From the NCBI GenBank assembly GCA_944386715.1, contig CALXCD010000003.1, positions 3,294-67,293 of the forward strand: a DNA stretch of 64,000 nt, written 5' to 3'. Below, piece after piece: positions 542 to 39,573 of this stretch. Origin of the DNA: an uncultured Clostridia bacterium (GTDB lineage Bacteria > Bacillota > Clostridia > TANB77 > CAG-508). Below the pieces are notes generated by a model. It was not told the origin of the DNA. It made no database searches and was given only the letters and a program-made list of their open reading frames with translations. The translations under genes were made by a program, and so were the position numbers. Every line of letters begins with the position of its first letter. Position 1 is the stretch's first letter.

Positions 542-695
542 ATTCAGTCCCAGGTATAATTATATTATTTTTTACACTTTGTGTGTTGCAACTTTTATAA
601 AACAAAAAAAGAAAGTTGCTCCAATCGCACTGCAGTTTTGCTCGTTTGGTCGCTACGCAGTGTTAAAAATAATATAATTATACCTGGGACTGAAT
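542..695 (+). repeat. Structured intergenic repeat, copy 1 (conserved core closed by a 36-nt inverted repeat)
   Basis: Arms 542-577 and 660-695 are complementary at 35 of 36 positions (hand count). The core TTTTTTACACTTTGTGTGTTGCAAC...GTTGCTCCAATCGCACT recurs at 25411 and 39445. An inner hairpin pairs 588-595 with 612-619. Confidence 0.7.
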
Positions 696-799: not shown

Positions 800-1927
800 A
801 TGGGATATTTGGGCGAAGAAATAAAAAAATTAGGATTTGGATTAATGCGATTACCACAAAAGGAAGGAAAAATAGATATTGAGCAAACAAAAGAAATGGT
901 AGACCACTTTATGAAAGCCGGATTTACTTATTTTGATACAGCATGGGCTTATGCAGGGAGTGAAGATGCTATTCGTGAGTCTTTAGTAGAACGTTATCCA
1001 AGAGAAAGCTTTCAATTAGCAACGAAAAATGCGGCTTGGATTAATTGCAAAACAAGAGAAGAAGCGATTGCTCAATTTGATACATCTTTAAAACAAACTG
1101 GTGCAGGTTATTTCGATTTTTACTTATTACATAATTTAGGAGAAGGAAGAACGAAGTTTTTTGATGAATTCAATATGTGGGATTGGATTATAGAAAAAAA
1201 GAAGGAAGGAAAAATAAAACATGCAGGATTTTCTTTTCACTCTACCCCAGAAGAATTAGAAGAAATTTTAAAAAAACATCCAGAAATGGAATTCGTGCAA
1301 CTCCAAATCAATTATGCTGACTGGGAAAACCATGCTATTCAATCAAAGGCTTGTTACGAAGTAGCTAGAAAATATGAAAAACCAGTTATCATTATGGAAC
1401 CTGTAAAAGGAGGAATGCTTGCTAACCCACCAGAGGCGGTTCAAGAAGTATTTAAAAAAGCAAATCCAGATGCCTCTATTGCTTCATGGGCTATTAAATT
1501 TGCTGCTAATTTAGAAGGTGTTATAACGGTTTTATCCGGAATGAGTAATATTGAACAAATGGATGATAATTTATCTTTTATGAAAGATTTTACCAAATTA
1601 TCTGAAAGTGAAAAAGCGACTATTGGGAAGGCACAAAAGGTATTAAAAAGTATTCCTTTAATCCCATGTACAACATGTAATTATTGTGCTAAAGTTTGTC
1701 CAATGCATATAGGAATTTCTGGTTCTTTTACAGCAATGAATTATTTTACTTTATATCGTGATAAAGCAGCAGCAAAACATCAGGAAGAATGGCTTGTTGG
1801 TGGTCATGGATTAAAGAATGCTAGAGAATGTATTAAATGTGGAAAATGTGAGGCAGTGTGTCCACAACATATTTCTATTAGAGAAGAACTTGTTAAAGTA
1901 GATAGAGCATTAAGTAGTGATGCTTAA
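800..1927 (+). CDS. Aldo/keto reductase with C-terminal 2x[4Fe-4S] ferredoxin-type domain
   Basis: AKR-like N-terminal region (GFGLMRLP, FDTAWAY). The C-terminus has two CxxCxxCxxxCP motifs (CTTCNYCAKVCP, CIKCGKCEAVCP). An SD (AAGGAG) lies upstream. Confidence 0.85.
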   Translation: MGYLGEEIKKLGFGLMRLPQKEGKIDIEQTKEMVDHFMKAGFTYFDTAWAYAGSEDAIRESLVERYPRESFQLATKNAAWINCKTREEAIAQFDTSLKQTGAGYFDFYLLHNLGEGRTKFFDEFNMWDWIIEKKKEGKIKHAGFSFHSTPEELEEILKKHPEMEFVQLQINYADWENHAIQSKACYEVARKYEKPVIIMEPVKGGMLANPPEAVQEVFKKANPDASIASWAIKFAANLEGVITVLSGMSNIEQMDDNLSFMKDFTKLSESEKATIGKAQKVLKSIPLIPCTTCNYCAKVCPMHIGISGSFTAMNYFTLYRDKAAAKHQEEWLVGGHGLKNARECIKCGKCEAVCPQHISIREELVKVDRALSSDA

Positions 1928-1971
1928 AAAGTTAATTAAAATAGATTTATTAGAAAGGAATGTGAGTAAAA

Positions 1972-2391
1972 ATGGAAAAAGAAGAACATGGAGGAATTTT
2001 TGGACAAGGAGAGCCAAATGTAAATTTTGCACAATATTTTATAGGAAATTCTTATTTAAATCCTTTGGCAAAAACAGAAAATCTTTCTATCGCAAATGTA
2101 ACATTTGAACCTAGATGTAGAAACAATTGGCATATTCATCATGCTACAAAAGGTGGGGGACAAATTTTAATATGCGTAGATGGTGAAGGATGGTATCAAG
2201 AAGAGGGAAAAACAGCGCAAAGTTTAAAACCTGGAGATGTGGTTACCATACCTGCAAATGTTAAACATTGGCATGGTGCAAAAAAAGATTCTTGGTTTAG
2301 TCATTTAGCAGTAGAAGTACCAGGCGAAAATACAAGTAACGAATGGTGTGAACCAGTGGTTGATGAAGAATATGACAAGTTAGGAGAATAA
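1972..2391 (+). CDS. Cupin domain protein
   Basis: Shows the cupin pattern NNWHIHH...GGQILICVDGEGW...GDVVTIPANVKHWHGA. An SD (AGGAATGTGAG) lies upstream. Confidence 0.8.
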   Translation: MEKEEHGGIFGQGEPNVNFAQYFIGNSYLNPLAKTENLSIANVTFEPRCRNNWHIHHATKGGGQILICVDGEGWYQEEGKTAQSLKPGDVVTIPANVKHWHGAKKDSWFSHLAVEVPGENTSNEWCEPVVDEEYDKLGE

Positions 2392-2428
2392 TTTGAAAAA
2401 ATAAAGACAATATATAAATAGGTAGGAA

Positions 2429-2827
2429 GTGATGGGAGAAATGACGATAGCAGAAGTAAGTAAAAAATATAATGTAACACCAGATACCATAAGATATTAT
2501 GAAAAGATAGGGCTATTACCAACCATTCCAAGAACGAAGAATGGCATAAGAAATTTTGATGAACAATCTTGCAGATGGTTAGAATTTATTAAGTGCATGA
2601 GAAGTGCGGGAATGGAAATAGAAATATTAATGCAATATATTTCCTTATATAGAAAGGGAAAAAGTACAGTAAATGAGAGGAAAAAATTGTTGGAAGGTCA
2701 AAGAGAAAAATTATTAGAAAAACAAAAAAATATTAATCAAACCATTGAAAGACTAAATTATAAGATAGAATTGTACGAAGAAATAACTTCAGGCAAGAGA
2801 AAAGATTTTACAGAAGAGATATTTTAA
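2429..2827 (+). CDS. MerR family transcriptional regulator
   Basis: N-terminal HTH (IAEVSKKYNVTPDTIRYYEKIGLL) followed by a coiled-coil dimerisation helix. The true start may be the ATG at 2432 or 2441. Confidence 0.85.
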   Translation: MMGEMTIAEVSKKYNVTPDTIRYYEKIGLLPTIPRTKNGIRNFDEQSCRWLEFIKCMRSAGMEIEILMQYISLYRKGKSTVNERKKLLEGQREKLLEKQKNINQTIERLNYKIELYEEITSGKRKDFTEEIF

Positions 2828-2855
2828 AAATTTATAAAGAAAGGATAGATGTAAA

Positions 2856-3749
2856 ATGGAAAAAGCGAAGGTATATTTTACAAGAGAAATAACCCCAGAA
2901 AGTGTTGTAAAAATGTATGAAACTTTAGGAGTAAAATTGCCGGGAAAAGTAGCTGTCAAATTACATTCAGGAGAAAAAGGAAATCAAAACTATATTAGAC
3001 CTGAATTTGTAAAAGCTATTGTAGAACATGTGAATGGAACAGTAGTGGAATGTAATACTGCTTATGAAGGTGCGAGAAATGCTACACAAAAGCATAAAGA
3101 ATTGATAAAAGAACACGGGTGGACAAAATATTTTGATGTAGATATCATGGATGCAGAAGGACCAGATAAAGAACTTCAAGTAGTAAATGGAAAAATATTA
3201 ACTAAAAATTATGTGGGAAAAAATATTGATAATTATGATTCTATGTTAGTATTATCTCATTTTAAAGGACATCCAATGGGAGGATATGGAGGAGCATTAA
3301 AACAATTATCAATAGGTGTTTCTTCTAGTAGAGGTAAATCTTGGATTCATAGTGCAGGAGTTACAGATAAGCAAGAAGAAGTATGGGATAGATTGCCAGA
3401 ACAAGATAAATTTCTAGAAGCAATGGCAGATGCGGCATCTACCGTTCATGAATTCTTTAAAAATAAAATTGTATATATTAATGTTATGTGTAATTTATCT
3501 GTTGATTGTGATTGTTGTGCAGTTGCAGAAGACCCATGTATGAAAGACATTGGAATTCTTGCAAGCACAGATCCAATAGCCATAGACCAAGCATGTATAG
3601 ATTTTATTTATCAATCAACAGACCCGGGAAGAGACCATTTTGTAGAAAGAGTAGAAAGACAACATGGAATTCATACCATTGAGGCAGCAGCTGAACTTGG
3701 ATTTGGTACAAGAGAATATGAACTAATAGATATGGATAAACAAGAATAA
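2856..3749 (+). CDS. DUF362 domain protein (Cys-rich, probable metal/Fe-S site)
   Basis: The N-terminus (KVYFT...VAVKLHSGEKGN...VVECNTAY) matches what I recall of DUF362 proteins. It also carries a CNLSVDCDCCAVAEDPC cluster. Confidence 0.7.
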   Translation: MEKAKVYFTREITPESVVKMYETLGVKLPGKVAVKLHSGEKGNQNYIRPEFVKAIVEHVNGTVVECNTAYEGARNATQKHKELIKEHGWTKYFDVDIMDAEGPDKELQVVNGKILTKNYVGKNIDNYDSMLVLSHFKGHPMGGYGGALKQLSIGVSSSRGKSWIHSAGVTDKQEEVWDRLPEQDKFLEAMADAASTVHEFFKNKIVYINVMCNLSVDCDCCAVAEDPCMKDIGILASTDPIAIDQACIDFIYQSTDPGRDHFVERVERQHGIHTIEAAAELGFGTREYELIDMDKQE

Positions 3750-3761
3750 GGTGGAATAAAA

Positions 3762-4928
3762 ATGAAAACATTATATTTTGATTGTTCTAGTGGAATAAGT
3801 GGAAATATGACTATTGGAGCATTACTAGAAATTGTAGAAGATAAAGAGTACTTATTAAAAGAATTAAAAAAATTGAATTTAGAAGGATATAAAATAGAAA
3901 TATCTAAAAAAGTAAAAAATGGAATTACAGGAACTTATGTGGATGTTATTTTAGAACATTCACATGAGCATCTTGACCATAAAGAACATCATCATGTACA
4001 TAGAAATCTAGAAGATATCTATACTATTATTGATAATAGTAGTATAGATGAAAAAACGAAACAATTATCTAAAAGAATATTTGAAAGAGTAGCGAGAGCA
4101 GAAAGTAAAGTGCATCATAAACCTTTAGAAGAAGTACATTTTCATGAAGTAGGGGCAATAGATTCTATTGTTGATATTGTAGGAACAGCAATTTTGATTC
4201 ATAAAATAAATCCAGATAATATCATATCTAGTGTTGTAAATGATGGTTATGGATTTATAGAATGTGCACATGGTATGATATCTGTTCCAGTACCTGCAAC
4301 TAGTGAAATATTTGCAGAAGCATCTGTAAAATGTAGACAAATTGATATTGATACAGAACTAGTAACACCAACAGGAGCAGCTATAATAGCAGAATTGGCA
4401 ACAGAATTTACGACACTTCCAACTATGAGAATAAAGAAAGTAGGTTGGGGAGCAGGAACAAAAGATTTAAAAATACCAAATGTTTTGAAAATATATGAAG
4501 GAGAGATGGAAACATCTACTCAAAATATTGTAGTGATGGAAACTAATATAGATGATTGTAGTGGAGAAATATTAGGATATACAGAGGAACAATTATTTAA
4601 AAATGGAGCATTAGATGTATTTTATACACCAATTTTTATGAAGAAAAATAGACCAGCTTATCGTTTGACAGTAGTTTGTAAAAAAGAGGATATGTTTTTA
4701 CTACAAAATATCATTTTTAAGCAAACTACTACAATTGGAATTCGATATCGATTTGAATCAAGAACAGAACTTCCAAGGGAAATGATAGAGATAGAAACTA
4801 AATATGGTAAGGTAAAAGCTAAAAAAGTAATGAATGATGGTGAAGTATATCTATATCCAGAATATGAAAGTATCAAGCAATTAGCAGAGAAAAATGATAT
4901 CTCTTTAAAAAAGTTTTATCAATTTTAA
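3762..4928 (+). CDS. larC: Nickel-pincer cofactor biosynthesis protein LarC (DUF111 nickel insertase)
   Basis: The N-terminus MKTLYFDCSSGISGNM.IGALL and the His-rich stretch EHSHEHLDHKEHHHVH are characteristic of LarC. Confidence 0.85.
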   Translation: MKTLYFDCSSGISGNMTIGALLEIVEDKEYLLKELKKLNLEGYKIEISKKVKNGITGTYVDVILEHSHEHLDHKEHHHVHRNLEDIYTIIDNSSIDEKTKQLSKRIFERVARAESKVHHKPLEEVHFHEVGAIDSIVDIVGTAILIHKINPDNIISSVVNDGYGFIECAHGMISVPVPATSEIFAEASVKCRQIDIDTELVTPTGAAIIAELATEFTTLPTMRIKKVGWGAGTKDLKIPNVLKIYEGEMETSTQNIVVMETNIDDCSGEILGYTEEQLFKNGALDVFYTPIFMKKNRPAYRLTVVCKKEDMFLLQNIIFKQTTTIGIRYRFESRTELPREMIEIETKYGKVKAKKVMNDGEVYLYPEYESIKQLAEKNDISLKKFYQF

Positions 4929-4945
4929 ATGAATAATATTAAGTT

Positions 4946-4975
4946 AAAAAAGACTAACTAGATTTAGTCTTTTTT
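4946..4975 (+). terminator. Rho-independent terminator after larC
   Basis: AAAAAAGACTA / TAGTCTTTTTT stem with an 8-nt loop and a T-run. Confidence 0.7.
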
Positions 4976-5044
4976 AGTTGCAAAAAGATAAAAAAAGTTA
5001 ATTTTACTGTAAATTTTTTTGAATTTTGTGTTATAATAAAAAAC

Positions 5045-6127
5045 ATGAAAAACAATAAATTTGAAAAAATAAATAATTTAATAAAAAAAGTAAAACGAGA
5101 AATAAAATATATACCAATAAGAATAAAAATATCTTTTGTAATGATATTAATTATTATAATTGCTTTAATATCTGTTTCAATCTTTATAGTAGATGAAAGC
5201 CAGCAAAAATATGAAATATACGAAGGAACAAATTTAAAAGAAGAAAAATATCCAGGATATAAAGAATTATTAGATAATCTGCAAGCTAGTCATCCTAATT
5301 GGACTTTTACATTATTTTATACAAGGCTTGATTGGGAAGAAGTAATCTCAAATGAAGGACATTCAGATACAAGAACGAACCCTTTAAATTTAATTCCAGA
5401 TTCTTCTGAATATCCAGAGGATTGGAGATGTGAAATAGATAAAGATAAAAGATTTGACAATGGAACATGGCTTTGTGCTTCAGATAAAGCAATAAGACAT
5501 CAAATGGATCCGAGAAATATTTTAAATGAAGAAAATATATTTCAATTTGTGGAATTAAAATATACGCAAGGAGCTCAAACAGTAGGTGGAATAAAATCAC
5601 TTACAGAAAATTCTTTTTTGGCAGGTGATAGTATTGCTAAAGCTCTAATACAAGCAGGAGAAAATGCAAATTTAGATGCGTATTTTATTACTTCTAGGTT
5701 AATACAAGAACAAGGTAGAAAAGGAACTGTTTTATCAAGAGGCTATGAATATAATGGAGAAATTGTATATAATCCATTTAATATAAGAGCAACCGGAAAT
5801 TCGAGAGAAGAAATACTACAAAATGCAGCACAATATGCCTATGAACAAGGATGGGATTCCTTAGAAGAAGCTTTAATTGGTGGAATAAATTTTGTCAAAA
5901 ACGATTATATTGATATAGGGCAAAACACATTGTATTTGCAAAAATTTGATATTGTAAATCAAGATGGGGAATTATATACAAATCAATATATGCAAAATTT
6001 ATTAGCACCTGAGTCAGAAGCAAGTAATATGAAATCTATATATGAAGCTTCAGATACGGTAGATGCCAATTTAAATTTTATCATACCTTTATATGAAAAT
6101 ATGCCAGAAGAATTTTCAGAATATTAG
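5045..6127 (+). CDS. Membrane-anchored peptidoglycan hydrolase (glucosaminidase domain)
   Basis: N-terminal TM helix. The C-terminal half (FITSRLIQEQGRKG...YNPFNI...YLQKFD) resembles mannosyl-glycoprotein endo-beta-N-acetylglucosaminidase domains. Confidence 0.6.
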   Translation: MKNNKFEKINNLIKKVKREIKYIPIRIKISFVMILIIIIALISVSIFIVDESQQKYEIYEGTNLKEEKYPGYKELLDNLQASHPNWTFTLFYTRLDWEEVISNEGHSDTRTNPLNLIPDSSEYPEDWRCEIDKDKRFDNGTWLCASDKAIRHQMDPRNILNEENIFQFVELKYTQGAQTVGGIKSLTENSFLAGDSIAKALIQAGENANLDAYFITSRLIQEQGRKGTVLSRGYEYNGEIVYNPFNIRATGNSREEILQNAAQYAYEQGWDSLEEALIGGINFVKNDYIDIGQNTLYLQKFDIVNQDGELYTNQYMQNLLAPESEASNMKSIYEASDTVDANLNFIIPLYENMPEEFSEY

Positions 6128-6211
6128 TTATAATCTATGTAGTAAAAATAAATAAAGGGAATGGTTTGATGACTATATTATGCATTATAGAAGGAGTAGG
6201 AGATTATATAT

Positions 6212-9200
6212 ATGTTACAAATAAAAAATATTCATAAACAATATAAAACAGGAGACCTAATACAAAAAGCTTTAGATGATGTGAGTTTAAACTTAAGAGA
6301 TAATGAATTTGTTGCGATTCTTGGACCAAGTGGTTCTGGAAAAACAACACTTCTAAATATTATTGGAGGTTTAGACCGTTATGATAAAGGGGATTTAATC
6401 ATAAATGGAATTTCTACTAAAAAATATAAAGATAGGGATTGGGATTCTTATCGTAATCATACAATTGGTTTTGTATTTCAAAGTTATAATTTGATACCAC
6501 ATCAAACTATTTTAGCAAATGTAGAATTAGCCTTAACCATATCAGGTGTATCTAAAAGTAAACGCAGGAAAAAAGCAATAAAGGCTCTTGAACAAGTAGG
6601 ACTTGCAAGCCAAATGCATAAAAAGCCAAACCAATTATCTGGTGGGCAAATGCAAAGAGTTGCAATAGCAAGAGCATTAGTAAATGACCCAGATATCGTA
6701 CTTGCGGATGAACCAACTGGTGCATTAGACAGTGACACGAGTGTTCAAGTAATGGAATTATTAAAAGAAGTAGCAAAAGACCGTTTAGTAGTAATGGTAA
6801 CACATAACCCAGAACTTGCAAGAAGCTATGCTACTCGTATTGTAAACATTAAAGATGGGAAAATACTTTCAGATACAAATCCTTATATCATAGAAAATGA
6901 GAAATATACGGAACCTGTACATAAGAACTTAGGAAAAACAACAATGTCTTTTTTCACTTCATTATCACTTAGTTTTAATAATTTAAAAACTAAAAAAGGA
7001 AGAACCATTTTAACATCTTTTGCTGGTTCTATTGGTATTATTGGTATAGCACTAATATTATCATTGTCAAATGGTGTTAATAGATATATTAAATCAGTTG
7101 AAGAAGATACATTATCAGAATATCCTTTGCAAATTCAAAGTTCAGGAGTTGATATTAGTTCATTATTGATGGGTTCAAGCAATGATGATGGTGATAATAA
7201 AGAAAGTGGAGATATCAATGTCAGCAAACGATTAACCAGTATGTTTTCTACAATAGGTTCTAATGATTTAGTATCCTTAAAGCAGTATTTAGAAAGTGAT
7301 GATTGCAATATTGAAGAATATGCAAAAGCTATTGAATATTCATATGATGTTACACCAAGAATTTATCATTCAGATATCGAAAATTTAAGACAAGTAAATC
7401 CAGATATTACTTTTTCAAGTTTGGGAATGGGTTCAGGAGCATCTACCAATAGTATGATGTCCAGCATGATGAGTACAGATGTATTTTTTCCGATGCCAAA
7501 AGATACAAACTTGTATGAAAGCCAATATGATGTAAAAGCAGGAAAATGGCCTACCAAATATAATGAATGTGTTTTGGTTTTAACATCAAAAGGAAATATT
7601 AGTGATTTTCTATTATATACATTAGGATTAAGAGATTATAATGAATTACAAAATTTAGTTACTCAATTTTCAAATGGAGAAGAAGTAAGTGCTCCTGACA
7701 ATTTAGGCTCTTATTCATATGATGATATTTTAGGAACTACTTTTAAATTGATTAATAATAGTGATTGTTATGAGTATGATGAAGAATATAAAATTTGGCG
7801 TGATAAAACTGACAATACTGAATACATGAAAAATATTGTTGCAAATGGAGAAGACTTAAAGATAGTTGGAATTGTACAACCAAAAGAAGGAGCAACAAGT
7901 ACTATGCTAACTAGCGGAATTGGTTATCCAGCATCTTTGACTGATTATGTGATGGAAAGTGCAAAAAACAGTAAAATTGTACAAGAACAATTAGCAAATC
8001 CAGGGATTAATGTATTTACAGGCAAAAGATTTGAGGAAACAGAAGAAGAAAATTCTTTTGATATGAATTCTTTAATTGATGTAGATACAAATGCAATTAG
8101 GTCAGCTTTTAAGTTAGACCAATCAAAAATAAAAGTGGATTTTGGAAACTTAAATAATATATTAACACAAAACTCATTACCAGCTCTTAATATAAATGAT
8201 ATTTTAAGTAATATTAAATTTTCTATGTCAAGTGAAGATATACAAAGAATCATAAGTGACTTTTTAAACGGTTATGAAGAATATGTACAAAACAAACCAG
8301 GAGCTAATATAAGTCAAATAGGTAAGCAATTGTCAGAATATTTGCAATCAAAAGAAGTGAATGAATTATTAAATAAAAAAATTCAAGAAATTATTCAGGA
8401 AAATGGTAGTTTAACAATTACGCAGGAACAATTGCAAGAAATTATGAAAGAAATTTTAGCAGGATATGAGAAGTATGTAGATGACAATGAGTTGGTAAGG
8501 GTAGAAGATTTGAATAAGTACCTTATGGAATATCTTGATTCAGAAGAAGCAAAAAATATTATTACCAATAATATATCACAAATAATAACATCTCAAAATT
8601 TAGATAAGCAAATATCTACTATCATGGAAAAATATATGCAAAATGTCGTAGGGACAATTAGCAAAAGTATTCAAAAACAAATGGAATCAAGCATTCGAAC
8701 TTTGAGTAAATCTATAACAGGTGCCATTAGTATAGATGAAAATGCTTTTATTGGTGCATTTCAGATGAAAATGAATGAAGAAGAATTATCAGAACTATTA
8801 AAATCTTTTATGTCTAAGGAAAGTGTTACTTATGACAATAACTTAAAAAAATTAAATTATGCTAATTTTGATGAACCAGATGGAATTAATATTTATCCAA
8901 AAGATTTTGAAGGAAATAAGGCAATTACTAATTTATTAAATGATTATAATAATCGTATGCAAGAGAATGGAGAAGAAGATAAAGTGATTTCATTTTCTGA
9001 TATGGTAGGAACATTGATGAGTTCTGTAACGACCATTGTTAACACGATTAGTTATGTGCTAATTGCTTTTGTTGCTATATCATTAGTCGTTTCTTCTATT
9101 ATGATTGGTGTTATTACTTATATCAGTGTATTAGAACGAAAAAAGGAGATTGGAATTTTAAGAGCAATGGGAGCATCTAAACATAATGTGTCACAAGTAT

Positions 9201-24436: not shown

Positions 24437-24500
24437 GGAGAAATAGAAAATAATGGAGCATAGAGGTTATTTATATAAATGCTCCAAGAAAGAAGAAAAA

Positions 24501-25376
24501 ATGCAGATAGAAGAAGTGATAAGATATTTTCCGATACATATTTATTCCTTATTAAAAAACACCTTTGAAAAAAATAGTCAAATAGAAGAAAATTTACAAG
24601 AGATAAGAGTGAGAGTAAATAGACCCATTTTATTAAAATTGAGACAAGCTGATATTTTGATACAGTATCCAGTAAATACAACAGAAATATTACAAATATT
24701 AGAAAAGCTATGTGAAAATTCAATTTATGCTTATAAAAATCAAATTTGCCAAGGGTTTTTAACAATAAAAGGAGGACATCGAATAGGTATTGCAGGGACG
24801 ATTGTAGAGGAAAACGGAAAAATTTTAAATGTGAAATACATAACAAGTCTAAATTTTAGAATTGCAAGACAAATTAGAAATTGTAGTAATGCTATTTTAA
24901 AAGAAATAGTAGATTTTAAAAATCAAACTATTTATAATACTTTGATTGTGGCACCTCCTGGAAAAGGGAAAACTACGGTGCTCAGAGATGCCATACGAAA
25001 AATCAGTAATGGAATTAATGAAATGAATTTTAAAGGTAAGACTTGTGGTGTAGTAGATGAAAGAGGAGAAATTGCAGCTATGTATAAAGGAGTTCCTCAA
25101 AATGATATCGGAATGAGAACCGATGTTGTTGAAAATGTTTCGAAATCACAGGGGATGAGGATGTTGATTCGAAGTATGGCTCCAGAAGTGATTGCTTGTG
25201 ATGAAATTGGTTCAAAGGAAGATGTACAAGCAATAAAAGAAGTATTAACTGCTGGGGTGAAAGGGATTTTTACCATGCATGGAAGAGATATGAAAGATGT
25301 TAAAAATAATGTAGAAATTAATAATTTAGTAGAAACGAGACAAATCGAAAAGGTGATTTTTTTGAATGATAGTTAA
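24501..25376 (+). CDS. spoIIIAA: Stage III sporulation protein AA (ATPase)
   Basis: Walker A in VAPPGKGKTTVLRD. EIRVRVNRPILL matches the SpoIIIAA N-terminal region. The start at 24501 was chosen over 24453 by N-terminal length. Confidence 0.85.
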   Translation: MQIEEVIRYFPIHIYSLLKNTFEKNSQIEENLQEIRVRVNRPILLKLRQADILIQYPVNTTEILQILEKLCENSIYAYKNQICQGFLTIKGGHRIGIAGTIVEENGKILNVKYITSLNFRIARQIRNCSNAILKEIVDFKNQTIYNTLIVAPPGKGKTTVLRDAIRKISNGINEMNFKGKTCGVVDERGEIAAMYKGVPQNDIGMRTDVVENVSKSQGMRMLIRSMAPEVIACDEIGSKEDVQAIKEVLTAGVKGIFTMHGRDMKDVKNNVEINNLVETRQIEKVIFLNDS

Positions 25377-25387
25377 TTGTTGTTTGT

Positions 25388-25534
25388 TTTGAAATAATAG
25401 GATATGATTTTTTACACTTTGTGTGTCGCAACCTACGAAAACAAAAATTTATGGTAGGTTGCTCCAATCGCACTCACATTCGTTTGTTCGGTCGCTTACG
25501 TAATGGTTTCAAAACCATATCCTAATATTTCAAA
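25388..25534 (+). repeat. Structured intergenic repeat, copy 2 (inside the spoIIIA operon)
   Basis: Same core as 568-663. It is enclosed by TTTGAAATAATAGGATATGATTTT / AAAACCATATCCTAATATTTCAAA arms. The inner hairpin pairs 25428-25436 with 25454-25462. Confidence 0.7.
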
Positions 25535-25647
25535 TTAGAAAATAAGAATAAATATGATATCAGTTCTAAATATCCTATAAAGAACATATAATAGAACTAT
25601 ACATATATCATGTATAGAAAATCAAACGAAAGATGAGGGGAAAAAGA

Positions 25648-26157
25648 ATGCAAGTTGTAAAATATATCATGTTATTTTTTGTTTTTGTAGCTTCTAGCTT
25701 AATAGGAAAAATGGTGGCGAAAAAATATACTTATCGCTTACAAGAACTAGAAGAAATGAAAAATGCGTTAAATGTTTTTAAATCCAAAATAAAATTTACT
25801 TATGAACCAATTCCAGAAATTTTTGCAGAAATAGAAAAAAACACAGAAGAAAATATTGCAAAAATTTTTCGATTAGCAAGAAACAAAATGCAAAAGCAGT
25901 CAGCAGAAACAGCTTGGAAAGAGGCAATAGAAGAAACACAAAACAATTTAAATAAAGAGGACAAACAGGCATTAAGTATGTTGTCTAAAATGTTAGGACA
26001 AACAGATATAGAAGGACAAACTAGTCAGATAGAAATTACTCAAAATTTTTTAGGAGTTCAAATTAAAGAAGCATTAGAAGAGAAACAAAAAAACGAAAAG
26101 TTATATTCTAGATTAGGAACTACGATTGGTTTGGTGATTGTTATTATTCTAATATAG
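25648..26157 (+). CDS. spoIIIAB: Stage III sporulation protein AB
   Basis: Operon position, size, an N-terminal and a C-terminal TM helix, and an SD (GAGGGG) before the ATG at 25648. Confidence 0.8.
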   Translation: MQVVKYIMLFFVFVASSLIGKMVAKKYTYRLQELEEMKNALNVFKSKIKFTYEPIPEIFAEIEKNTEENIAKIFRLARNKMQKQSAETAWKEAIEETQNNLNKEDKQALSMLSKMLGQTDIEGQTSQIEITQNFLGVQIKEALEEKQKNEKLYSRLGTTIGLVIVIILI

Positions 26158-39408: not shown

Positions 39409-39430
39409 TTTTATGCATTTATACATAAGT

Positions 39431-39475
39431 ATTAGGATATTGTTTTTTACACTTTGTGTGTCGCAACCTACGAAA
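39431..39475 (+). repeat. Structured intergenic repeat, copy 3 (5' half only)
   Basis: ATTAGGATATTGTTTTTTACACTTTGTGTGTCGCAACCTACGAAA matches copy 2 almost exactly and then diverges. There is no partner GTAGGTTGC. Confidence 0.6.
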
Positions 39476-39573
39476 GCTAAAAATTAATGAATAAGAATTG
39501 AATAAAAAAGCTATACAAAAAAATTTATCTATGATATAGTAAGAGTAAATATGATAGTAAAGAAGGGAAGAAA

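Follow-up and report, generated by a model that had tools for sequence, protein, structure and literature searches.

A probable family of trans-mobilised miniature inverted-repeat elements with IS4-type ends in uncultured gut Clostridia

A 64,000-nucleotide stretch of contig CALXCD010000003.1 from an uncultured Clostridia bacterium (assembly GCA_944386715.1; this whole stretch is called the window below) carries three + strand copies of a short repeat in which, in the two full copies, a conserved core is enclosed by long inverted arms. We consider it probable that the repeat is a non-coding family of miniature inverted-repeat transposable elements (MITEs) of uncultured gut Clostridia, in which the stem corresponds to terminal inverted repeats with IS4-type ends and the element is mobilised in trans. 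The family is previously undescribed, but its kind, the bacterial MITE, is known, and on this reading it is not a new RNA gene. A first-pass annotation had described a three-copy repeat with a conserved core of about 95 nt, and this is borne out: the 25-nt 5' core motif occurs at 568, 25408 and 39443 (chance expectation 0) and the 17-nt 3' core motif at 615 and 25458 (chance expectation 0.05), the third copy comprising a 5' fragment alone. No copy beyond these three emerged when the whole window was searched with a profile.

In copy 1 the left arm (ATTCAGTCCCAGGTATAATTATATTATTTTT, 542–572) is complementary to the right arm (665–695) at 31/31 positions, the two arms being read as terminal inverted repeats, and both run outward into degenerate extensions, TTTAGTTATT at 532–541, whose homologue is the outer arm in subfamily-2 copies (L008 and L108 among them), and TGTAGCAATAT at 696–706. 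The arms initially counted as complementary at 35 of 36 positions are the same feature, although the count differs here and the degenerate pairing reaches to about 532 and about 706. Between the arms lies the conserved, asymmetric core (574–663), delimited from sequence, fold and family alignment, which comprises an innermost helix (ACACT at 574–578 with AGTGT at 659–663), hairpin H1 (588–596/611–619) and hairpin H2 (621–649). The predicted fold of copy 1 has an energy of −67.8 kcal/mol (z = −11.7 against shuffled sequence), and the GC content of its core is 40%, compared with 28.6% for the whole window and 14–23% for the flanking intergenic DNA.

The arms of copy 2 (25388–25411 and 25511–25534) are complementary at 22/24 positions, in agreement with the earlier figure of about 24 nt with two mismatches. 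They enclose a core at 25412–25510 (profile E = 1e-25) with H1 at 25428–25436/25454–25462 and a degraded innermost helix, AATGG standing where copy 1 has AGTGT; the predicted fold is −44.2 kcal/mol (z = −5.2 against shuffled sequence). This copy lies inside the spoIIIA sporulation operon (window 24453–26157), 11 nt past the stop codon of spoIIIAA, whose product was identified as Spore_III_AA, and 98 nt before spoIIIAB. It is identical in a second metagenome assembly of the same species (L234), and many public contigs of the window's own species end inside it, so that the repeat evidently fragments assemblies. Copy 3 (39425–39481) consists of a copy-2-like left-arm remnant (GTATTAGGATATTG) and the first ~39 nt of the core (profile positions 2–40, E = 2e-8), and breaks off in the H1 loop; it is probably a deletion derivative, as locus L084 is relative to locus L111. 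Past copy 2, TAAGAATAAATATGATAT (25535–25560) resembles TAAGAGTAAATATGATAG (39530–39560) past copy 3, and the two look like a shared −10 region of the next gene or a further shared element remnant. All three copies do lie in the sense orientation, as annotated, which is uninformative given that nearly all genes in the window are on the + strand.

Scanning one genome per species with the 19-nt 5' core returned 113 further loci, nearly all of them in about 25 metagenome-assembled genomes (MAGs) labelled uncultured Clostridium sp. or Clostridia bacterium, any one MAG holding at most 16 copies. The window's own species is absent from these 113 matches; along syntenic stretches the window shares 71–81% nucleotide identity with several family loci, and therefore belongs to the same clade as the hosts of the family. 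The elements measure about 150–250 bp between arm tips, none of the copies at the family loci contains a conserved open reading frame (ORF), and every copy is intergenic. Inverted arms of 24–76 nt, mostly 45–50 nt with 0–2 mismatches, were found in 90 complete copies, and fall into three related types that define subfamilies 1, 2 and 3. In subfamily 1 (about 60 copies) the arm reads TTY-AAGTTTCGACTTTTTGCAAG, followed by ~7–10 variable G-rich bases and then TATAATATATCATTTTT; its exact ends are TTY-AAGTTTCGAC...GTCGAAACTT-RAA and its arms are 47 bp long. The arms of subfamilies 2 and 3 begin with AGTTACTGTTCAGCCTTAG and CAATGCTGTCAACYTAAG respectively, each continuing into a variable stretch. 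The arm of copy 1 matches the subfamily-2 arm of L008 at 31/39 positions in a pairwise alignment, the arms of subfamilies 2 and 3 match each other at about 27/34 positions, and no subfamily-1 arm occurs in the window. The window copies thus appear, by arm sequence, to belong with subfamilies 2 and 3, whose tips equal IS4-family terminal repeats, their own arms having diverged from that tip, and are best regarded as old, partly decayed members of the family.

Several variants of the element were seen among these loci. A long form of the core, in which a further hairpin of about 51 nt (TGCTGTCCACTGTTAAAGCTTTGCTTGTTACAGTGGCAGTATGCGTTAGCT) separates GCTCGTTT from GGTCGC, is present in L010, L011, L017, L023, L041, L044, L064 and L069, and often has CCAATGCTACTTGC in place of CCAATCGCACTCGC. 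A mini-palindrome at L031:2514–2560 (AAGTTTCGACATTTTTTGAGATTTGCCAAAAGTCCAAACTT) lacks the core and is built solely from the outer portions of subfamily-1 arms; it represents an internal deletion or what is left of an ancestral outer element. In L103 (reverse strand, about 1330–7098) the first gene of a putative Wadjet-type (JetA/B/C-like) defence operon has half copies on its two sides, one of the 3' half and one of the 5' half, the operon being recognised from N-terminal sequence only. Half copies were considered as the ends of a longer element and rejected as such: they border ordinary genes, and L084 is a deletion derivative of the state seen in L111. Unrelated GC-rich repeats also recur in the MAGs of the family, with motifs of the TTCCCCACTGGTTCCGGGTTTAAATGGGGAAA and GGGGACGTTTCC types (L038:5941–7990, L069:1080–7213, L034:1801–7875), and CCTGTCCCAAA adjoins elements in L016 and L044. 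Beyond these genomes, a blastn search of a plasmid collection with the whole element gave no match, viral contigs matched neither core motif and gave three matches to the subfamily-1 tip that were all chance hits in coding sequence, and a literature search with sequence strings from the element matched no paper.

The family is mobile and shows the features typical of a DDE transposon. Subfamily-1 copies are bordered, directly outside TTYAAG...CTTRAA, by direct repeats of 8–9 bp, which reach at least 8 bp in 41/61 copies, and subfamily-3 copies by target duplications of 10 bp, perfect in L022 and L041 and matching at 9/10 positions in L050 and L106. Orthologous sites are found both filled and empty: L059 carries the element between two copies of AGTTAAAAT where the orthologous site in L010 holds a single AGT(T/A)AAAAT, and L076 is filled where the orthologous L008 site is without the element. 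The empty sites lack the arms as well as the core. Small size, the non-coding sequence, dispersal, terminal repeats, target duplications and presence or absence at orthologous sites are together the features that define a bacterial MITE, and the judgement that the repeat does not fit a classical MITE is overturned by the terminal repeats, the duplications and the empty sites. The lengths of the duplications, 8–9 bp in subfamily 1 and 10 bp in subfamily 3, also fit the IS4-family range of 7–13 bp, which varies by subgroup.

A relation to this insertion sequence family is evident from the arm tips. The subfamily-3 17-mer AATGCTGTCAACYTAAG, scanned against metagenome contigs, was found at no fewer than 120 loci, and at 14 or more metagenome loci two inverted copies lie 1.35–1.5 kb apart around a single ORF of 330–495 amino acids, so that at least 14 full-length elements share 17 identical nt at their ends with the subfamily-3 tip. 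The one ORF tested, from L126, scores as an IS4-family transposase, with 4.6e-44 against NCBIfam NF033592 (above the cut-off) and 4e-18 against Pfam DDE_Tnp_1; it has the YREK motif (YGYRWGEEEHFKFQK), and homologues on plasmids bear an IS4-family annotation. The tip of subfamily 3 agrees with the end consensus published for the IS4 and IS231 subgroups, whose direct repeats measure 10–13 bp (PMC2266710). Subfamily 1 has 17 extra outer bases, and these match the end consensus of the ISPepr1 subgroup of the same family, the tip TTCAAGTTTCGAC fitting YT-AA-YTT---A at 8/9 specified positions; ISPepr1 elements have direct repeats of 7–8 bp and an AT-rich target preference (PMC2266710). The first-pass annotation had suggested looking for a protein gene with the core at its end; none of the full-length IS4-family elements that share the tip carries the core.

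In metagenomes from soil, the sea, termite gut and human gut (L114–L233) the 17-mer AATGCTGTCAACTTAAG forms the tip of an IS4-type terminal repeat that is very widespread, bordering full insertion sequences and many unrelated, short MITE-like elements (e.g. L159:2796–2927, L181:6883–6958, L220:1474–1664 and L133:8026–8537). In L172 (contig OIGD01000952.1, reverse strand, about 4420–4900) a truncated IS4-type element has TGTGTTCGCAAC 9 nt inside its 17-nt tip match, which resembles TGTGTGTCGCAAC of the core. This could be a trace of the origin of the 5' core; the lead is weak, because the case is a single one and is not repeated in other elements.

No IS4 transposase was found in the window or the 113 host-clade loci, and the partner acting in trans is therefore inferred. 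A DDE transposase supplied in this way would bind the arm tips and excise the element, and insertion by staggered cuts would duplicate a target of 8–10 bp. The cognate parent element would be expected to carry TTCAAGTTTCGAC or CAATGCTGTCAAC at its ends.

Subfamily 1 is also distinguished by where it inserts. In 54/60 non-redundant copies a TTGnnn hexamer lies 9–14 nt (mode 11–12) outside one end; TTG has a background of about 1 per offset, against 10–13 at offsets 11 and 12 on each side. When the flanks are aligned on TTG alone, TTGAcA, a 17-nt spacer and TAtAAT emerge unselected, with a partial TG extension, which marks these sites as genuine sigma-A-type promoters. The promoter lies only to the right in 25 copies, only to the left in 19 and on both sides in 10 (examples of subfamily-1 copies are L025:1143–1341, L038:2152–2350 and L069:3859–4109), and it is already present at the empty L010 site. 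No consistent proximity to promoters is seen in subfamilies 2 and 3 or in the window copies.

The most conspicuous property of the repeat is the conservation of its pairing. For 82 complete aligned copies RNAalifold predicted 41 pairs, 29 of which changed on both sides, and a hand-named structure consisting of the arms, the innermost helix, H1 and H2 had standard pairs in 94% of cells compared with 79.5% in shuffles. Changes on both sides occurred in 482 cells against 110 in shuffles, 0/500 shuffles reaching the observed value, and pairing fell to 35–41% when the partner columns were slid. The six compensations aligned by hand between copies 1 and 2 are not secure, as the arms of these two copies are too diverged, yet the covariation they were taken to show is strong across the 82 copies. 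Within subfamily 1 the arms are 97.6% complementary within a copy and 75% identical between copies, their middle segment 97.5% complementary within and 63% identical between copies, and the core 94% identical between copies.

The mismatches bear on the level at which this complementarity is kept. Arm positions are Watson–Crick paired at 3940/4101 (96%), and the mismatches include 49 G.T and 44 A.C; the two are about equally frequent and symmetric between strands, and therefore point to complementarity at the DNA level rather than to a wobble-tolerant RNA helix. A selected RNA helix should favour wobble in the transcribed strand, whereas random transitions in two DNA repeats give the observed symmetry. 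Of two orthologous pairs, L021/L072 differs by one compensated double change in the arms and L012/L085 by three uncompensated arm changes. L003 and L100, two separate loci from different MAGs, have an arm variant and an H1 loop in common, and arm variants are therefore inherited via transposition. The covariation of the arms thus looks like two inverted repeats evolving in concert at the DNA level. Active master copies would give rise to new arm variants and pass them to daughter copies, while mismatches in the quasi-palindrome would either disappear from the lineages that transpose or be removed through gene conversion or template switching within the element. Guide-like pairing of the variable arm segment with the flanking DNA was rejected by eye, the segment being G/C-rich and the flanks A/T-rich. 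Inward-facing promoter-like sites in the arms (TTTGCA-16-TATCAT) are weak and no more numerous than in shuffles. With the subfamilies out of register in the alignment, arm decay set against core conservation is not a reliable sign of selection in place.

A number of observations sit less easily with a MITE mobilised by an IS4-type enzyme. None of the three window copies shows a recognisable target duplication, so the earlier statement that neither a conserved terminal repeat nor a duplication is present describes these copies correctly, but not the family with its duplications of 8–9 or 10 bp. A tblastn search with 14 IS4 transposases gave no hits in the window and the 113 host-clade loci (about 800 kb), and a search of those 113 loci for inverted repeats 0.7–4 kb apart returned only unrelated repeats and no matching terminal pair; MAGs usually lack assembled insertion sequences. 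Solo arms, sought in the same loci as traces of a parent element, were found only as truncated or internally deleted remnants, and the full-length IS4 elements with the same tip, none of which the core adjoins, come from other metagenomes. The arms are complementary through 45–60 bp, including a stretch that is free in sequence, for which the classical MITE model has no need. A transposase normally requires only about 20 bp of terminal repeat, and plausible sources of the longer complementarity are correction of quasi-palindromes by template switching or gene conversion, or a hairpin required during transposition. The core is more conserved than the arms and has compensated hairpins of its own. 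Finally, copies between tandem genes are sense in 42 cases and antisense in 13 (p = 1e-4), a bias that a symmetric DNA transposon does not predict and that suggests an added strand-specific constraint arising from transcription or replication. Its cause could be the asymmetric core acting at the RNA level or an influence of the replication strand, and GC skew cannot separate the two, because it is confounded by the composition of the coding strand.

These points leave room for a more elaborate, though less probable, view that would make the core a strand-specific structured module with a function of its own, either RNA or single-stranded DNA, which rides on transposon ends. The ends would have switched at least once, from IS4/IS231-like to ISPepr1-like tips, and the youngest subfamily would have come to lie 11–12 nt upstream of sigma-A −35 hexamers. 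If so, the MITEs of this family would deliver a portable regulatory or structural element to sites upstream of promoters, by a mode of targeting so far described only for Mutator-like transposases.

It seems unlikely that the element is above all a structured non-coding RNA, whether a cis-acting element of 3' untranslated or intercistronic regions or a small RNA, which mobility merely spreads. Pairing is kept through changes on both sides in the core as well as in the arms. In the innermost helix, ACACC/GGTGT replaces ACACT/AGTGT in 4 copies and ATACT/AGTAT does so in 2; position 6 of H1, the inner hairpin for which covariation had been noted between copies 1 and 2 and which is indeed present in both, changes from C.G to T.A or A.T in 14 copies; and the two-pair tip of H2 changes from GC/GC to AC/GT, GT/AC or AT/AT. 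The sense orientation is stronger still in the older subfamilies (15 sense against 1 antisense), where the left arm often lies 26 nt or less from the upstream stop codon, so that these copies would be co-transcribed with the upstream gene; only 2 copies of the family lie between convergent genes. The strong conservation of the core, its elevated GC content within AT-rich intergenic DNA, and the precedent of bcr1, a transcribed mobile repeat with the same properties (PMC3184786), point the same way. Against this, G.T wobble is no commoner than A.C in the arms, on their 3' side the core helices have roughly as many substitutions that disrupt pairing as ones that permit it, and the orientation bias is not separable from a replication-strand bias. 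No terminator-like site was found in or beside the element. A search of the whole window against Rfam 15 gave no match at the gathering score, in keeping with the initial failure to recognise a named RNA family, and at relaxed E-values only generic long hairpins of plant miRNAs appeared, with 25.9 bits against a cut-off of 144–245.

For subfamily 1 there is a second rival, which we hold to be similarly doubtful, namely that it was moved by a prokaryotic Mutator-like transposase of the ISLre2/TnGBS or ISKra4 type instead of an IS4-family enzyme. Such transposases are known to target the region upstream of sigma-A promoters: TnGBS, ISLre2 and ISKra4 insert 15–17 bp upstream of the −35 box, with direct repeats of 8–9 bp, and those with near-perfect repeats insert in both orientations (PMC3942029). 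The fixed distance to TTG with a −10 box at 17-nt spacing, the 8–9 bp duplications and the occurrence of the promoter on either side are all as this would predict. The distance is, however, 11–12 nt and not 15–17, the conserved terminal cytosine is missing from the ends, which read 5'-TT...AA-3', the arms of 47 bp exceed the 18–39 bp of the Mutator-like family, and the arm-tip k-mers match none of the repeats in the supplement of PMC3942029; with these differences the rival is kept for subfamily 1 only. Nor was any such transposase recovered, and the tip of this subfamily instead resembles the IS4 family through the end consensus of ISPepr1, a subgroup with 7–8 bp duplications and an AT-rich preference.

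An element derived from IS200/IS605, a palindrome-associated single-stranded DNA hairpin moved by a Y1 TnpA, had also been proposed, and would accord with the long hairpins, the lack of an ORF and an orientation bias that could reflect single-stranded DNA on the lagging strand. Elements of the IS200/IS605 type have no terminal inverted repeats, produce no target duplication and insert beside a fixed short motif. The repeat described here has both terminal inverted repeats and target duplications, lacks a conserved tetra- or pentanucleotide beside one end, and has a tip equal to the terminal repeat of an IS4-family DDE element, which contradicts such a palindromic element and makes this origin very improbable. 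That the arms are host palindromes, such as terminators or repetitive extragenic palindromic (REP)-like sites, with the core inserted in their loop, might be suggested by arm sequences that vary by copy and by window copies just downstream of genes, but is scarcely credible, since homology links the arms of all subfamilies with each other and with the terminal repeat of an insertion sequence, the duplicated target lies outside them, empty orthologous sites have neither arms nor core, and coreless arms occur only as truncated or internally deleted remnants.

Among known systems bcr1, a group A repeat of the Bacillus cereus group, offers the closest parallel. It is likewise an interspersed non-coding repeat of Firmicutes, about 155 bp long, with direct repeats, presence or absence between strains and a cruciform-like fold kept by compensatory changes (PMC3184786). 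It differs in that its direct repeats are 5 bp long, compared with 8–10 bp here, in that it is known to be transcribed, where the present family is known from DNA alone, and in that no cognate transposase tip is cited for it, where here the tip is an IS4-family terminal repeat; the two have no sequence similarity. The Correia/NEMIS, ERIC and RUP-type repeats, which have been listed as bacterial MITEs (PMC3184786), are similar as intergenic palindromes of 100–200 bp that form long hairpins when co-transcribed, but their terminal repeats are conserved between copies, unlike the arm middle of the present family with its high complementarity within copies and low identity between them.

The IS4 family itself shares with the elements a terminal repeat that begins 5'-CA, with the pattern -AATR--------WTW / AA--TAA, a target duplication of about 10 bp and, in the full-length elements with the 17-mer tip, a single-ORF YREK DDE transposase. 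In contrast, the elements described here are gene-less, their arms are 2–3 times longer than an IS4 terminal repeat, and they contain a structured core not seen beside any full-length insertion sequence, the matching transposase being absent from the host-clade DNA searched. Within that family, IS231 with its MIC231 cassettes provides the non-autonomous comparison, and effects on mRNA processing are known for the Correia/NEMIS, ERIC and RUP repeats. TnGBS, ISLre2 and ISKra4 share with subfamily 1 the fixed short distance upstream of a sigma-A −35 box, the length of the direct repeats and insertion on either side, and differ in the distance itself, in the terminal bases and in their shorter arms (PMC3942029).

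We therefore prefer to think of the repeat in terms of a mobile element whose stem is a pair of transposon ends. It is an abundant, undescribed repeat of uncultured gut Clostridia that breaks metagenome assemblies, and its compensated stems are easily mistaken for a new RNA gene, as perfect covariation in a long hairpin can stem from the concerted evolution of transposon ends. Of particular biological interest are arm complementarity beyond the needs of a transposase, a sense-biased core more conserved than the ends, and the precise position of subfamily 1 at sigma-A promoters. If an IS4-type enzyme is responsible for this targeting upstream of promoters, it would represent a second, independent origin of promoter targeting.

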